From positions 1-31,134 of the forward strand of contig JBHLNZ010000037.1 in the NCBI GenBank assembly GCA_048941015.1: a DNA stretch of 31,134 bases. Direction: 5' to 3'. Below, one piece after another: positions 2,340 to 24,103 of the stretch; position 1 is the stretch's first letter, and the number at the start of each line of letters is the position of its first letter. A model generated the notes under the pieces. That model searched no databases and was not told the DNA's origin. It worked only from the letters and a program-made list of their open reading frames with translations. This DNA is from Promethearchaeota archaeon (GTDB lineage: Archaea > Asgardarchaeota > Lokiarchaeia > Sigyniarchaeales > SOKP01). The position numbers and the translations under genes were made by a program.

Positions 2340-3551
2340 ATGGTAAAAAATATCAATGCCCGACAAATCAAACTTCTTCAGGAAAACGGAATTAGTACCG
2401 CGGAAGCATTAGCAATGTCTCCTGCAGCGATGGTTGCTGAAATCGATGGGTTAGGGGATAAAACTGCTAGGAAATTAATATGGAATGCTCGAAACGCCTT
2501 AGGAATGACTGAATTTATGGCAGTAAAAGATATAGACGAAAATACAGAATATATTACCACTGGCTCGGAGGAATTAAATCGAATCTTAGGAGGAGGAATA
2601 GCGACCGGTAAAATCACTGAAATTTTTGGTCCATTTAAATCAGGAAAAACGAATCTTGCACAAACTATAGCGGTAACATCTCAATTACCTAAAAGTAAGG
2701 GAGGTCTTGGCGCTTCAGTTGCCTATATCGACACTGAAAATACTTTTTCCAAAGATAAGATAAAGCGCATTGCAAAAAGATTTGGAATTGATGAGAAGAA
2801 AGCACTGTCTCAAATTTATCATGCTAGAATTTACTCTTCTGACCACCAATCCCAAATGATTGCCAAGGCAGAAGGTTTATGTAAAACTAGAGGAATAAGA
2901 TTAATAATTGTAGATAGTTTAATGGCTTTGATGAGAGCGGAATATGTAGGAATTGGTATGTTAGCCCGACGTCAAAGTGTGCTTAATAACATGATTCATG
3001 CTCTATCTCGAATAGCAGAAACTTATAATTGTGCAGTTTTGGTTACCAACCAAGTTGCTACTAAAATGGTCGGAATGTTTTCTGCGGATGATGCAATCGG
3101 AGGAAATATTGTTGCTCACGGTTGTCATTTTAGAGTTATGTTTAAGACTAAGGGTTTCTCATCTAATAATTCTTTAAAAAGGAGAGCTATAATTGTCGAT
3201 GCTCCTGATCTTCCGCCAAATGAATGTGAATTCTTCATTACAGCATCGGGAATTGCTGATACTGAACAATCAGAAATGCCAAAAAACGATGAAATCGATT
3301 TTAAAGTAGAGTCCTTATTTGAAGATTCTAATGCTGATTCTAAACCTAAAGAAACTTCTGAAGAAGTAGAAATAACGCAAGTGAAAGGAATTGGGAAAGG
3401 TATCGCAGATAATCTGAAGGAACATGGAATAAATTCTATTGAAGATTTGATTGATTCAAATGCTGAAGAATTAGCAACTAAAATAAGTGGAGTATCAACA
3501 AAAAAGATCATAGAATGGCAAGAACACGCAAAAGGGCTAATAACTAATTAA
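2340..3551 (+). CDS. radA: RadA/Rad51-family recombinase paralog with N-terminal HhH domain and an extra C-terminal HhH domain
   Basis: TTGSEELNRILGGG; Walker A GPFKSGKT; YIDTENTF; Walker B LIIVDS; RAEYVG..LARRQ; VTNQV; IGGNIVAH. The C-terminal VKGIGKGIADNLKEHGINSIEDL follows an acidic linker. Confidence 0.92.
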   Translation: MVKNINARQIKLLQENGISTAEALAMSPAAMVAEIDGLGDKTARKLIWNARNALGMTEFMAVKDIDENTEYITTGSEELNRILGGGIATGKITEIFGPFKSGKTNLAQTIAVTSQLPKSKGGLGASVAYIDTENTFSKDKIKRIAKRFGIDEKKALSQIYHARIYSSDHQSQMIAKAEGLCKTRGIRLIIVDSLMALMRAEYVGIGMLARRQSVLNNMIHALSRIAETYNCAVLVTNQVATKMVGMFSADDAIGGNIVAHGCHFRVMFKTKGFSSNNSLKRRAIIVDAPDLPPNECEFFITASGIADTEQSEMPKNDEIDFKVESLFEDSNADSKPKETSEEVEITQVKGIGKGIADNLKEHGINSIEDLIDSNAEELATKISGVSTKKIIEWQEHAKGLITN

Positions 3552-7135: not shown

Positions 7136-7171
7136 TTTATAAAAAAAAAATACTCATTTTTTCTTTAAAAA
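7136..7171. promoter_or_regulatory. Back-to-back pair of T-rich-BRE/TATA elements (7136..7151 on minus; 7156..7171 on plus)
   Basis: Minus: ATTTTTTTTTTATAAA, 43 nt before ATG 7092. Plus: ATTTTTTCTTTAAAAA, 21 nt before ATG 7193 and identical to 12442..12457. Confidence 0.65.
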
Positions 7172-7192: not shown

Positions 7193-8284
7193 ATGGGAGT
7201 TAAACTTCAAAACATTATAATTAGAAAAAAAATCGAATTTTCAGATTTAAGGGGGAAAATTATTACTGTTGATGCTCCAAACATCATAATGGGTTTATTT
7301 AACTTCGCACGAAGAGACATTGGACAGAATAGTAAAGGTTTAATTTTAGATAAAACACAACGTCCAATTTCTCATCTCTACGGGTTATTTTATAGAATAA
7401 ACTTTTATTATTCGAAGATGATAATTCCTATTTTTGTGTTTGATGGTGTTGATTCTGAGTTAAAAAAACTCAAAACGAAAGACAGGCTTCACGATTTTCT
7501 TTTTACTCAGATTTGGTATCAAGAGGCTATAAGATCAGGGAATAATCAATTAGCACGAAGTATTGCTTTAAGTAAAGAATATATGTGGAGAAATATTATT
7601 TCCGAATCAAAAGCACTTCTTGGGGCATTAGGTGTACCATATATTGAATCTCCCGCTTCAGCAGAATCCCAATGCGCCTATTTAGTAAGAGATAAAATAG
7701 CTAATTATTCTAATTCCCAGGATTTTGACTCGCTACTTTTTGGTTGCCCTAGATTGCTCCAAAATCTTTCTAAATCATTAAAAAGAAAAATAAAAGGACG
7801 TTGGACCTATTATAAAATCGATCCTTTAACAATAAATCTTAAAAAAAACTTAGAACTGCTTAATATTAATCAGTTTCAGTTAGTTGATATAGCTATACTA
7901 ATAGGAACAGATTATTTTCCAGGAATCAAAGGTATAGGGTCTAAAACTGCCTTAAAACTGATATTAAAACATCATTCCTTAGAAAATATATTGTATCAGG
8001 AGAAAAATAAATACAATTTTGAAGAATTAACTCCTGATCTCATAAAAGAAGTACGAAAAATCTTTCTACTTCCCGAAGTAATCAGAAAATATAGTGAAAT
8101 CTTTTGGAATCATCCAAATGAAGCCTTAGTATACCATTTATTATGTGAAGAACATAATCTTAACCGAGAACGTATTAAGAATAATATGGATAAGTTTATA
8201 AATAATTATGAACGATGCGTACAATATTTTAAATTTAAAAAGGATAAACCAACTCTTTTACAAAAATCATTATTATCGTTTTAA
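7193..8284 (+). CDS. fen: Flap endonuclease-1 (FEN1/XPG family) paralog with C-terminal PIP box
   Basis: MGVKL, VDAPN, PIFVFDG, AESQCA, SQDFDSLLFG, GTDYFPGIKGIGSKTA (H3TH); C-terminal QKSLLSF PCNA-interaction motif. Confidence 0.92.
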   Translation: MGVKLQNIIIRKKIEFSDLRGKIITVDAPNIIMGLFNFARRDIGQNSKGLILDKTQRPISHLYGLFYRINFYYSKMIIPIFVFDGVDSELKKLKTKDRLHDFLFTQIWYQEAIRSGNNQLARSIALSKEYMWRNIISESKALLGALGVPYIESPASAESQCAYLVRDKIANYSNSQDFDSLLFGCPRLLQNLSKSLKRKIKGRWTYYKIDPLTINLKKNLELLNINQFQLVDIAILIGTDYFPGIKGIGSKTALKLILKHHSLENILYQEKNKYNFEELTPDLIKEVRKIFLLPEVIRKYSEIFWNHPNEALVYHLLCEEHNLNRERIKNNMDKFINNYERCVQYFKFKKDKPTLLQKSLLSF

Positions 8285-8295
8285 GTAATTACTAG

Positions 8296-8311
8296 AATTT
8301 TCTTTTAAATA
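8296..8311 (+). promoter_or_regulatory. Degenerate T-rich-BRE/TATA element AATTTTCTTTTAAATA
   Basis: 54 nt before ATG 8366. It could also be the fen terminator T-tract. Confidence 0.35.
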
Positions 8312-8365
8312 TTTCAAGTTTATTCCCAAAACAATTCTTATTTATAATATTAAGATGACAATAAA

Positions 8366-8968
8366 ATGGCAGATAATTCAAATATACATTCTGAGGAGTA
8401 TATGATTCCATTTCTTATTGAACAAGAATTTACTACCAAATACAACGTACTTAATTATGTAGTACGACATATGTCTTTTGTAAATCATCAGGAAAAAATT
8501 GTTACTATACCTCAAGAAAAATTAAGAATGGTATCAAAAAATACTCATATTCCTAATTGCATAGTTAATAAAGTTGTAAGAGGCTTTTTGATAAACGTGC
8601 TTCTTTTTCGAGATCATATGAGTGCTTATAAATTTTCGTGGAGTCATGGAGTCAAAGTTCAATTAAGTAAAGTTTGTGTATATTTAGAACGTCTATATAA
8701 TATGGCACCGGTATTTGATTTTACAAGGGCAAAGAAAAATTTAGAGATATTATATAAACTTCTTGAACTAAATTGTTATTGGCCTTGTCTGACTACACAA
8801 CTCGCTTTAGTTATATTTGTGACAGATCGAAACGATTCACAAAATTATGAGTTTATTACTCAGAAAAATTTGCGAGCGATTTGTGCTAATTCCGCGTATG
8901 CGTTTCATAGAGCACGAAATAAATTAGGGATTAATAATAATGGACGGATAAGTCGATTAATACAGTAA
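8366..8968 (+). CDS. Hypothetical protein with a C-terminal TFB/TFIIB cyclin-repeat-like domain
   Basis: VYLERL...AKKNLEIL...QLALVIFV...ITQKNLRAICANSAYAFHRARNKL parallels the TFB second repeat (YVPRF...AIEIL...AAAAIYIA...[24 protein letters not shown]). No N-terminal Zn ribbon. Confidence 0.5.
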   Translation: MADNSNIHSEEYMIPFLIEQEFTTKYNVLNYVVRHMSFVNHQEKIVTIPQEKLRMVSKNTHIPNCIVNKVVRGFLINVLLFRDHMSAYKFSWSHGVKVQLSKVCVYLERLYNMAPVFDFTRAKKNLEILYKLLELNCYWPCLTTQLALVIFVTDRNDSQNYEFITQKNLRAICANSAYAFHRARNKLGINNNGRISRLIQ

Positions 8969-9057: not shown

Positions 9058-9990
9058 ATGATTACTGATTTAGATGATATTTTCCAAAAATTATTAGAAA
9101 AAGGGCTAACTGAAGAGGAAATTGAACGCCAAATACACAAAAAATCTCGGCAGTATGATGGGTTCATGTCGAAACAGGGAATTCTCTTTATTATTGCCAA
9201 AGAAAACGGTATTAAGCTCTATTCTCCCGAAATTGACCCTGAAATCTACAAAGAAATCGAAAAAGAGATTGATTATGATGAGTTCACCATCTCTATCTCC
9301 AATGTACAAGAAGGGATGCAAAATATTGTTATCTTAGGTAAAATAATATCCATTTTTCAGAAGCGTGAATTTGTAAGAAAAGATGGATCAGTAGGGCAGG
9401 TTGGCTCATTTATCGTAGCTGATACATCTGGAACAATTAAAGTAGTGATATGGGATGATAAAGTTGAAATGATGAATAATGAATATTTTAAAGAAGGAGA
9501 AATCATCCGAATTATTGGCGGATATTCTAAGATGGGAGAAGACAATTCGCTTGAAGTTCACCTCAGGCGAAATGGAAATCTCCATATCTCTCCAAATGAT
9601 ATAACCCAAAAATTAAGAATTCAATTGGAATCGGTCAGATGTTCTGAAAATTACCATCTTAATTTAAAAAAAGGGGTAGCAAAAAATATTCATGATTTGG
9701 TAGATAAATATGAATTTATTAGGAGTATTCAGGGTATTGTAAAAATAGAAGATTTTAAAGAATTGACTACTAAAAGTGGAGAAAAGACATTTCTTCTTAA
9801 ATTGATATTAAGCGATGATTCTGCGTCCGTTTATGTAGTAGTATGGGGGATGATTGCGATTGAATGTCTGAAATTAATAAATGAGGGAGATTCAGTCTGT
9901 ATTACTAACTTAAAGGTACAGAGAAATACGTTTAATAATGAAAAAGAGCTAATATTTACTAAGAAATCTTCTTTGCAGATTATAGGTTAG
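9058..9990 (+). CDS. Replication protein A-like ssDNA-binding protein (two OB folds, helical N-terminal domain)
   Basis: ISNVQEGMQNIVILGKI...EFVRKDGSVGQV...ADTSGTIKVVIWD and a second OB, LSDDSASVYVVVWG. Confidence 0.88.
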   Translation: MITDLDDIFQKLLEKGLTEEEIERQIHKKSRQYDGFMSKQGILFIIAKENGIKLYSPEIDPEIYKEIEKEIDYDEFTISISNVQEGMQNIVILGKIISIFQKREFVRKDGSVGQVGSFIVADTSGTIKVVIWDDKVEMMNNEYFKEGEIIRIIGGYSKMGEDNSLEVHLRRNGNLHISPNDITQKLRIQLESVRCSENYHLNLKKGVAKNIHDLVDKYEFIRSIQGIVKIEDFKELTTKSGEKTFLLKLILSDDSASVYVVVWGMIAIECLKLINEGDSVCITNLKVQRNTFNNEKELIFTKKSSLQIIG

Positions 9991-10072: not shown

Positions 10073-10606
10073 ATGACAATATATGTGCCAAAAGCATTGT
10101 ATGAAAATGAGATTTCAGAAGTGCTAGATGAAATCCGACATTCTTACGGAATTCTTACTAGAAAAGGATTTATCTACGGGTTAATTGCGATTGATCAAGA
10201 TGCTAAAATTATCGCCATAGACTCTCGTTTTGACCGAAAGTTAAATTATTGGGATTTAAGTTCTATCGGAGCTGCGATGTATGGAGTGGCACGCCAAGCT
10301 CAAGATTTTTTTGACACTCAATCCTTAATACGTGCTACTTTAATTTTTAAAGACTTACAGTTATTTGTAAAATCAATAGGGCAAGTTAATCTAAAGCGAA
10401 AAGGAGATCGAGAAATTTTGGTAATACTTCTAGTGAATAATGAAGTCAATATAGGAGTTCTTATACTCCAGATGAATAAGTTTTCCGAAAAAATTAGAGA
10501 AGCAATAAAACGCAACAACGAAATTATGTCCAAGTTAGAAATGACTGAAACAGAATTAAAAGAACATATTAAAAATCTCAAGAGAAAAGTATTTGGATCT
10601 GCTTAA
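10073..10606 (+). CDS. Roadblock/LC7 (MglB-like) domain protein with C-terminal helical extension
   Basis: Pattern GLIAIDQDAKII...LSSIGAAMYG...LVILLVNNEVNIGVL; directly upstream of an MglA-like GTPase. Confidence 0.75.
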   Translation: MTIYVPKALYENEISEVLDEIRHSYGILTRKGFIYGLIAIDQDAKIIAIDSRFDRKLNYWDLSSIGAAMYGVARQAQDFFDTQSLIRATLIFKDLQLFVKSIGQVNLKRKGDREILVILLVNNEVNIGVLILQMNKFSEKIREAIKRNNEIMSKLEMTETELKEHIKNLKRKVFGSA

Positions 10607-10624
10607 TTTTAGGTGATTCATAAA

Positions 10625-11284
10625 ATGGCAGAATCAAATAGAAAAGGAGAGAGTTGCCCGTCTTTAAGTAGTAAATCTAATCAAGGTAAAATGAAAGGAG
10701 TGCTTCAATTTAAGATTGTATATTGGGGTCCCGGTGAATCGGGGAAGACTACGAATTACTTTCGGCTTAGGGAGAAATTTGATGGAGTAAAATTGAATGC
10801 AGGATACTCTATTGAAACTACAGATGGCCGCACTTTATGGCAAGATTCAGTTCGGCTTTCATTTTTTCTTAATCTCGGAGATATTAAGTATAATATCATT
10901 TCTCAAATAGTAACGGCAACGGGACAAGAACGTTTTTTATCTACCAGAGAATATGTTTTGGATGGAGCGGATGGAGTGGTTTTTGTTGCTGACTCGGATC
11001 CTGAAAAGATGGAACAAAACAAACGCAGCTTTCGAGAATTGATTAGTTTTACAAAACCTAATAAGATTCCTTATTTGGTGCAGTTAAACAAACGAGATTT
11101 AAAAAACGCCATCTCTATTGAAGAATTTAAAAAACAGTTAAATCTCCCTGATTTTGAAGAATATGAAGATGGAACCCTTGTAGTCTATTCTTCGGTAGCT
11201 TTGAAGGGCGAGAATATACGAGAATGTTTTGAAGATCTTATGCTTCATGTAATTTTTAATTATTTTAAGAAGGATTTCATTTAA
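10625..11284 (+). CDS. MglA-like small GTPase (likely start ATG 10625 after AGGTGA; the ORF track starts at 10613)
   Basis: KIVYWGPGESGKTTN (G1), TTDGRTL (G2 with the MglA-type Arg), TATGQ (G3), DGVVFVADS, NKRD (G4). Confidence 0.88.
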   Translation: MAESNRKGESCPSLSSKSNQGKMKGVLQFKIVYWGPGESGKTTNYFRLREKFDGVKLNAGYSIETTDGRTLWQDSVRLSFFLNLGDIKYNIISQIVTATGQERFLSTREYVLDGADGVVFVADSDPEKMEQNKRSFRELISFTKPNKIPYLVQLNKRDLKNAISIEEFKKQLNLPDFEEYEDGTLVVYSSVALKGENIRECFEDLMLHVIFNYFKKDFI

Positions 11285-12909: not shown

Positions 12910-13122
12910 ATGAATGTTATACAACATAGTTATTGCCCCCGTTGTCAAACTTATTTAGTATATACAACCGAGAACAAGATTTTATGTCCCTCCTGCCGAC
13001 TTACGTTTAATAAAGATGTATTCGGTGCATTAAATGACGAGAATATTCTTTCGGATCAGGAAATTAGCGGGATACTTGATTCTTTAAAAAAAGGAAGAAA
13101 TATACAAAAACTAAAAATTTAA
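12910..13122 (+). CDS. Small Zn-ribbon protein (TFB N-terminal Zn-ribbon-like)
   Basis: CPRCQTYLVYTTENKILCPSCRLTF; GGGGT ribosome-binding-like sequence just upstream. Confidence 0.65.
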   Translation: MNVIQHSYCPRCQTYLVYTTENKILCPSCRLTFNKDVFGALNDENILSDQEISGILDSLKKGRNIQKLKI

Positions 13123-23458: not shown

Positions 23459-24103
23459 TTATATTAAATTTAATTTTAAATACCGAAATTTTACAATTTT
23501 AAGCGTAGATAATAAGCATGACACATTATGTTCTAAAATCAACTCAAAATGACCTTCTTTATAATGAAGGTCCACACTTTTATTATCTCGGAGTAATGGA
23601 TCATCATAGGATTTTTGGTTGATGCTATACAATGCAGGAATAAGCCCTTCTCCATCTCTTATTTGCACATTAACAATTTTAACTGAGTTTAGGAACCTTA
23701 ATTTCTGTAGACTACATATTTTTTTCAGTTGAGATGGCAAGACTTTCTGGAAAAATCGTGCTTCATGATTTGAAAAGCTGAATAGATAAAATCATTGTAA
23801 AATGGAAAGGAGTTCTAGAGCTGCTTTATATAATTTTATTAAGAAATCTTCAGTTTCGATATAAATTTGGTAGATTCTGTTTGAAAAGAGTATTCCTAAG
23901 ATTTTTGGTGGCTGGCACTCTAAATCTATAACTGCTAATCTCAAAGGAAATTAATTATTACTAATAGGAACCATTCGACCTTTAACATATTCATCCTCTG
24001 TTAAGGCTTCAAGAAATCCGTCGATTTGTTTTTTAACTTTTTCATTTTCCTCCGGATCTGAAAGTATATCAAAACTTAGGTGTAGATCTCTAGCTTCTCT
24101 CAT
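23459..24103 (-). pseudogene. Pseudogene of an RNase H-like/DEDD (YprB/RNase_H_2-like) nuclease with two in-frame stops
   Basis: ATG at 24103 reads in one frame to the stop at 23459 (215 codons), interrupted by TAA (23951-23953) and TGA (23792-23794). Contains LAVIDLE (Exo I-like) and ILEHNVSC (Exo III-like). Confidence 0.7.

Follow-up and report, generated by a model that had tools for sequence, protein, structure and literature searches.

A family-restricted Asgard protein with a single predicted cyclin box, encoded between FEN1 and RPA-like paralogues amid T-rich promoters

The ORF described here lies in a 31,134-nucleotide stretch of DNA from a Promethearchaeota archaeon, called the window below, and is a genuine, conserved gene. 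Its 200-aa product, for which we use the working name X200, has a predicted N-terminal three-helix bundle followed by what is soundly read from the model as one cyclin box, and in the genomes sampled it occurs in a single family of Asgard archaea. We favour, tentatively, the hypothesis that X200, a basic and probably TFB-derived protein, binds DNA as an accessory of a recombination/repair module specific to the family, together with an RPA-like protein and a FEN1 paralogue encoded next to it. X200 is unlikely to be the reader of the T-rich promoters that surround its gene, the role proposed for it in the initial annotation. The features discussed are collected in Table 1.

Table 1. Positions in the window of the X200 gene, its predicted domains, its neighbours and the associated promoter elements
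Feature	Position	Strand	Basis or remark
TTTTTTCTTTAAA promoter element of the FEN1 paralogue	7157..7169	+	exact-copy search
FEN1 paralogue, lineage-specific, upstream of X200	7193..8284	+	Pfam XPG_I/XPG_N, identity, synteny
T-run + TATA-like element TTTTCTTTTAAATA	8298..8311	+	55-68 nt upstream of the X200 ATG; conserved in orthologues
Proximal TATA-like element TTATTTATAATA	8338..8349	+	17-28 nt upstream of the X200 ATG; unconserved in orthologues
X200 CDS, 200 aa	8366..8968	+	ORF list, homologues, sole genomic copy
X200 N-terminal domain, residues 1-90, predicted three-helix HTH-like bundle	8366..8635	+	AlphaFold, structure search
X200 C-terminal domain, residues 91-200, predicted single cyclin box, five helices	8636..8965	+	AlphaFold, structure search
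X200 cyclin-box helices 4-5, residues 165-187, predicted HTH-like unit	8858..8926	+	model, conservation
RPA-like protein, two OB folds, downstream of X200	9058..9990	+	Pfam OB folds

The gene occurs once in its own genome. A word-indexed search (E <= 0.01) returned about 200 homologue clusters at 90% identity, nearly all of 190-216 aa and with source labels from Asgard archaea only. An exhaustive search of 1.84 billion representatives gave 78 at 50% identity, all about 200 aa long bar a 392-aa form, P0132, which carries a 220-aa N-terminal extension with no Pfam match. A phylum-wide sample of 301 species genomes was searched with the X200 profile, which matches 38 of the 68 genomes of the window's GTDB family and none of the 232 genomes from 29 other families. 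The distribution is patchy in the window's genus (11 of 27 genomes). Two relatives with 100% complete genomes, G083 and G174, have the RPA-like gene directly after the FEN1 paralogue, with no X200 between them. A back-translated CSAYAFH pattern gave background-level matches in the genomes without the gene, none of them fitting the family HMM, and the absences appear genuine. X200 is thus lineage-restricted and dispensable, being found in one family that itself includes members apparently devoid of it. Some genomes carry extra copies (G207:C28:174795-175328; G195:C33:13799-14173; three matches in G225), among them a pseudogene with five in-frame stops and a partial copy with one stop. Comparison with Pfam, NCBIfam, PHROGs and PADLOC yielded sub-threshold noise and no assignment, neither the single protein nor the profile retrieved a relevant PDB sequence, and the ESM Atlas gave no usable match. 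Foldseek against viral models provided no sign of a viral origin (E of at least 0.4, with TFIIB, Brf and cyclins leading). The family is undescribed in the literature searched.

The AlphaFold2 model of X200, built from a 33-sequence alignment, has a pLDDT of 89.2 and a pTM of 0.83, with helices at residues 9-35, 50-60, 64-87, 96-113, 119-135, 142-155, 166-172 and 177-187. A Foldseek-independent search of 48,161 PDB representatives gave 35 top matches that are all cyclin-fold proteins aligned to residues 91-198. TFIIB leads, with 3k1f_M at Z 8.4 (3.4 Å, 94 residues), 5wh1_A at Z 8.2 and 7o4i_M at Z 8.1, values near 8 being only moderate for an all-helical domain by the structure tool's own caution. 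The remainder of the TFB family (Brf2, Z 7.8; Brf1, 6.9; Pyrococcus TFB, 1ais_B, 6.8), cyclins F, A, B, C and D (Z 6.7-6.9), Orc6 (6.6) and Rb (6.1) are also matched. When Foldseek's 290 best chains were re-aligned to X200, the best 27 were all TFIIB, TFB or Brf at Z 7.0-8.4, followed by cyclins at 6.3-7.0 and Rb at about 5. The highest scores of this second comparison belong to 8s52_M (Z 8.4, 2.7 Å, 96 residues) and 5wh1_B (Z 8.4); 1d3u_B, from the Pyrococcus TFB-TBP-BRE complex, reaches Z 7.8 over its residues 1102-1202, Brf2 Z 7.4 and Brf1 Z 6.9-7.1. Across TFIIB, TFB and Brf the rmsd is 2.3-3.7 Å for 90-99 residues. Foldseek E-values against the PDB are weak (0.4 and above), with TFIIB, Brf and cyclins again at the head of the list. 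The cyclin box is a sound reading of the modelled C-terminal domain because the match list is uniform and the whole domain is covered, and the lean of this box to the TFIIB type is suggestive. A cyclin fold with a C-terminal HTH, as foreseen by the initial annotation, is thereby recovered in the predicted structure, a five-helix box whose best matches are TFIIB, TFB and Brf at Z 7-8.4.

The C-terminal domain superposes on repeat 1 of these proteins (residues 105-207 of human TFIIB, 119-220 of the yeast protein and 1102-1202 of Pyrococcus TFB), the exception being Brf1 in 8ffz, where repeat 2 is aligned. The N-terminal 92 residues modelled alone form a three-helix bundle (pLDDT 84) that matches the SRP54 M domain at Z 7.0, followed at Z of about 5 by numerous DNA-binding domains of the homeodomain or HTH type; its 50 best structural matches include no cyclin fold. 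That it could be a degenerate cyclin repeat is improbable, given its three helices and the lack of cyclin-fold matches. X200 therefore appears to carry a single cyclin box where the TFB core carries two. A Zn ribbon (PF08271) is matched by neither Pfam nor NCBIfam models, the N-terminus is helical, and the cysteines at positions 65, 104, 137, 141 and 173 make up no CxxC pair and no C4 motif. No extended segment of the B-reader or B-linker type is present in the model, in which residues 1-90 are a bundle packed on the C-terminal domain. The lack of ribbon and B-reader, already remarked when the ORF was annotated, is therefore confirmed. Devoid of Zn ribbon, B-reader and B-linker, and apparently of a second repeat, X200 should be unable to bring in RNA polymerase or to function as a TFB.

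Sequence comparison did not extend the structural likeness. The claim that the C-terminal 95 residues or so follow the second TFB repeat finds no support in profile searches, and the superposition falls mostly on repeat 1. Across all TFB comparisons hhalign probabilities range from 0.1 to 6% (one set of own TFBs comprised 6 of them): the 71-member X200 alignment gave 0.3% against the genome's own TFBs, and at best 6% against 35 Asgard TFBs taken as core, repeat 1 and repeat 2, with the N- and C-terminal domains of X200 split. The best alignment, itself weak, pairs X200 residues 50-80 with positions 4-34 of repeat 1 (P 0.006, probability 6%); for the C-terminal domain and repeat 2 the P value was 0.26. 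The Pfam TFIIB model (PF00382), with E up to 1, and the Pfam cyclin models match no member among 71, the X200 family HMM retrieves no TFB in the genome and the TFB-core HMM no X200 member. The resemblance to TFB, as seen in the model, is at the level of the fold only, and statistical support for sequence homology is absent.

The initial annotation had also aligned a TQ pair and the segment SAYAFHRA of X200 with the HTH of TFB. TQ (residues 165-166) stands at the start of helix 4 (166-172) and SAYAFHRA (176-183) in helix 5 (177-187), positions that correspond topologically to TQ and TEVTVRNR in the TFBs of this genome, whose recognition helix reads VTEVT[VL]R. This register is right as topology, helices 4-5 being where every cyclin repeat has its HTH, and it lacks statistical support as homology; the TQ match is either a two-residue coincidence or a relic. 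No column is invariant in the fast-evolving N-terminal domain. Nearly all conserved positions belong to the C-terminal domain: A114, P115, F117, R121, A122, N125, P140, T144, Q145, T153, D154 and a set in helices 4-5, where Q166, N168, R170, S176, A177, Y178, A179, F180, H181, R184 and N185 are each kept by at least 80% of the 71 members. The family has a median pI of 9.9, and of 10.2 for the C-terminal domain (range 9.2-11.4), which fits nucleic-acid binding.

The genome encodes 7 full TFBs with two PF00382 repeats each (14 repeats found), on contigs C101, C18, C64, C58, C109, C15 and C17. Matches to this repeat number 8-24 per genome in four other sampled relatives of the family (17-24 in three, 8 in the fourth) and 3-16 in other Asgard families. 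TFB paralogues have expanded in the window's family and are candidate readers of distinct promoter classes.

The X200 gene sits in a conserved neighbourhood. Among 29 X200 loci from 8 genera, a FEN1-like gene is found immediately upstream on the same strand in 25 and an RPA-like gene downstream in 23; X200 identity among the syntenic loci is 31-45%, and 75% for the closest one. The window's FEN1 shares 35-39% identity with FEN1 of other Asgard families, whereas the canonical FEN1 (G000 contig C3:201-1196) shares 43-50% with those and 71% with that of a family member. Both FEN1 types are present in four other complete genomes of the family that were checked; in G019 the canonical type alone was found. 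The RPA-like gene has a longer paralogue of 576 aa on C101. Between the FEN1 paralogue and X200 the gap is at least 68 nt in every locus and holds a conserved T-run+TATA element. In 7 of 24 loci, drawn from five genera, the RPA-like gene begins at -32 to +32 nt relative to the X200 stop, a spacing that implies operon-like co-transcription, sometimes with overlap of the two genes. Within about 1.5 kb of flank, six X200 loci have no RPA-like gene downstream, and the RPA-like gene and the FEN1 paralogue are both retained where X200 is absent (G083, G174). The coupling of X200 and RPA-like genes is thus frequent, and their partnership at most facultative.

Several other genes of the window deserve mention. 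The RadA gene (2340-3551) encodes an extra C-terminal HhH_5 domain (residues 344-398); the genome's remaining strong RadA-like matches are far less similar (C38, 34% identity across the ATPase core). A roadblock-like gene and then an Arf/Ras-like small GTPase gene occupy 10073-11284. No kinase partner was seen in the X200 neighbourhood. A 70-aa Zn-ribbon protein (12910..13122) belongs to a multi-copy family of up to 5 copies per genome, and in many relatives one copy lies just upstream of the FEN1 paralogue, in the order Zn-ribbon, FEN1 paralogue, X200, RPA-like. We considered a split TFB made of X200 and this small protein and rejected it: the ribbon is generic (Zn_Ribbon_TF, E 0.095, far below the cut-off) and its family is present also in genomes without X200.

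The cluster of T-rich, non-canonical promoters reported around the gene is real. The element TTTTTTCTTTAAA has 24 exact copies in 3.59 Mb, of which 4 are in the 31-kb window and 4 on contig C43. The copies in the window that are additional to the one given in Table 1 are at 2253 (RadA), 10010 (roadblock-like gene) and 12443 (a 128-aa Zn-finger protein); the RadA element is about 75 nt upstream of the gene. The BRE position is occupied by a T-run in 31 and is A-rich in 154 of the 606 upstream regions with a TTTAWAWA box, and 14 of these 31 T-run promoters are on C88 and C43. On C43 the exact element directly precedes the gene of a Hel308-like helicase. The T-run+TATA promoter class is concentrated in the window and on C43, whose cluster (G000 contig C43:4000-25400) numbers 7 such promoters. 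Other products of this second cluster are B12/radical-SAM, ThiF-like, PP-loop and GNAT proteins; a 1240-aa protein is among several of unknown type, and a copy of the small Zn-ribbon protein lies at 23911-24096. The T-run element is found upstream of X200 in nearly all orthologues, and X200 looks like a member of the regulon because its own upstream region has the element. Roadblock orthologues keep it upstream in most relatives, those without X200 included.

The relation between gene and motif was assessed by the ratio of motif to reversed-control counts in genomes with and without X200. The exact 15-mer TTTTTTCTTTAAAWA, a C-variant, has a ratio of 2.19 with X200 versus 1.27 without, in a comparison uncorrected for phylogeny. 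For TTTTTTNTTTAAATA, in which the seventh base is free, the equally uncorrected ratios are 2.32 versus 1.85 overall, 1.96 versus 2.04 in the window's genus (g1) and 2.49 versus 3.40 in genus g2; in genus g4, where X200 was not found, the ratio is 1.96. The co-occurrence of gene and motif across genomes, which the initial annotation had named as a check, is apparent with the exact 15-mer and largely gone with the looser motif, and we read the difference as lineage drift of the variant. Two X200-less genomes, both 100% complete, have clusters of their own: G040 carries 7 motif copies at 84.7-115.7 kb of contig C35, with a FEN1 paralogue at 100.2 kb, and G147 has a similar cluster of 7 copies within about 30 kb. 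In G083 and G174 the RPA-like and roadblock promoters retain the element. The promoter class is independent of X200, since the motif is enriched and kept in genomes that lack the gene.

These data bear directly on the proposal that X200 is an altered-specificity TFB-like factor reading the T-rich element instead of the BRE, required for these promoters to fire and closing a self-contained regulatory circuit. The promoter class exists and is clustered, the invariant helix 5 is topologically equivalent to the BRE-recognition helix, and the exact motif is more enriched in genomes with X200. We nevertheless regard this proposal as very improbable, because TTTTTTNTTTAAATA is equally enriched without X200 in g1 and g4, 7 copies are gathered within about 30 kb in each of two genomes devoid of the gene, orthologous promoters retain the element in two more, and a protein with one cyclin box and neither ribbon, reader, linker nor second repeat would not recruit polymerase. 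The 7 full TFBs of the genome could read the element. The T-run+TATA promoters need a reader other than X200, most plausibly one of these TFBs.

We lean, with reserve, towards the accessory role stated at the outset. The most economical origin of X200 would be a TFB core repeat that diverged past sequence recognition, because TFBs have expanded in the lineage and TFB is the sole other archaeal cyclin-box protein known. X200 would belong to a module of divergent DNA-transaction paralogues and be regulated along with them rather than control them; the module would comprise FEN1, the RPA-like protein, RadA and the Hel308-like helicase of C43, all presumably driven by T-run+TATA promoters. It may bind DNA through helices 4-5 of its basic cyclin box and through the HTH-like N-terminal bundle, and could serve alongside the RPA-like protein and the FEN1 paralogue, as a dispensable accessory for DNA binding or recruitment. 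Several points temper this reading: both neighbours persist in genomes without X200, six X200 loci show no RPA-like gene in the flank, Z near 8 is moderate, a regulator placed first in an operon with its target would yield the same synteny, and the invariant serine and two alanines of helix 5 are small and may have a structural role rather than contact DNA.

A doubtful but possible alternative is that X200 is a dispensable transcription modulator, a TFB-derived half-factor docking on TBP-promoter complexes or on the T-run by the TATA box, which would compete with full TFBs as a repressor or dominant-negative or would aid a TFB paralogue as a co-activator. The rank of TFIIB-type cyclin boxes above cyclins, the near invariance of helices 4-5, a basic charge as expected of a DNA-binding domain and the greater enrichment of the exact C-variant with X200 all agree with it. 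The gene also lies inside the motif-rich cluster and has its own element, making autoregulation possible; retention of the motif after gene loss would make sense if X200 were a dispensable repressor, and TFB3 (PMC6101594) and TFB2 (bioRxiv 10.64898/2026.09.06.749720) provide precedents. Against such a modulator, X200 has a single repeat that superposes best on repeat 1 and not on the BRE-reading repeat 2, has no sequence homology to TFB, and loses its co-occurrence signal with the looser motif, in a comparison that ignores phylogeny. It is unlikely that X200 is instead a cyclin- or Rb-like protein adaptor that does not bind DNA, for example a subunit tuning the FEN1 paralogue, the RPA-like protein or the adjacent roadblock/small-GTPase pair, or that its cyclin-box likeness is convergent and its function unrelated. 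Cyclins, Rb and Orc6 do match X200 at Z 5-7, the neighbours are syntenic, and the invariant loop TDRND (153-157), acidic and exposed, is better suited to a protein interface than to DNA. A pI near 10 throughout the family favours nucleic-acid contact, however, TFIIB-type repeats score consistently above cyclins, and the neighbourhood is without a kinase partner.

To our knowledge, the only cyclin-box proteins described in archaea are TFB and its paralogues. One cyclin box standing by itself and joined to an HTH-like bundle, in a family undescribed in the literature searched, would thus be a new architecture for this fold. X200 is conserved in one Asgard family, amid divergent paralogues of the FEN1, RPA-like, RadA and Hel308-like kinds with a distinct promoter class in common. 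The narrower practical outcome is that the T-rich promoters are unlikely to be read by X200.

With the repeats of TFB/TFIIB, Brf1 and Brf2 (PF00382), X200 has in common the five-helix cyclin box and the HTH-like pair of helices 4 and 5. Unlike these two-repeat factors, it has a single repeat, lacks the Zn ribbon, B-reader and B-linker, carries an unrelated N-terminal three-helix bundle and shows no similarity to them by sequence or profile. Cyclins and the Rb pocket are of the same fold class (Z 6.3-7.0 and 5.1-6.1, respectively); they rank under the TFIIB-family matches and have no sequence similarity to X200, which is strongly basic, and the cyclin Pfam models (PF00134) match none of the 71 family members.

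Sulfolobales TFB3 is a truncated TFB paralogue that activates DNA-damage genes and retains the Zn ribbon, a coiled coil replacing the C-terminal HTH core (PMC6101594); TFB2 drives cell-cycle genes (bioRxiv 10.64898/2026.09.06.749720). X200 resembles TFB3 in being a partial TFB-like protein associated with genes of DNA damage or DNA exchange, and in occurring beside full TFBs in its lineage. The two are not homologous, and X200 corresponds to the other half of TFB, a core-like cyclin box without ribbon. If X200 acts at promoters, it would be a new kind of partial-TFB regulator beside TFB3. A more elaborate and rather improbable version makes it a ribbon-less TFB-derived half-factor working in trans as a dispensable switch on the T-run+TATA promoters of a recombination/repair regulon, the structural mirror of TFB3; were this true, it would reveal a new route to promoter-class control from pieces of general transcription factors.

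The likeness to Orc6 lies in a cyclin fold of TFIIB type, which in Orc6 serves replication rather than transcription. The similarity is at fold level only (8s0d_F, Z 6.6, 2.9 Å, 87 residues; 3m03_A, Z 3.9), with Z lower than for TFIIB and no sequence similarity, and Orc6 has two such domains where X200 has one. Orc6 binds DNA through its TFIIB-like domain. If X200 binds DNA with the RPA-like protein, as we tentatively favour, it would be an archaeal parallel to this use of the TFIIB fold.
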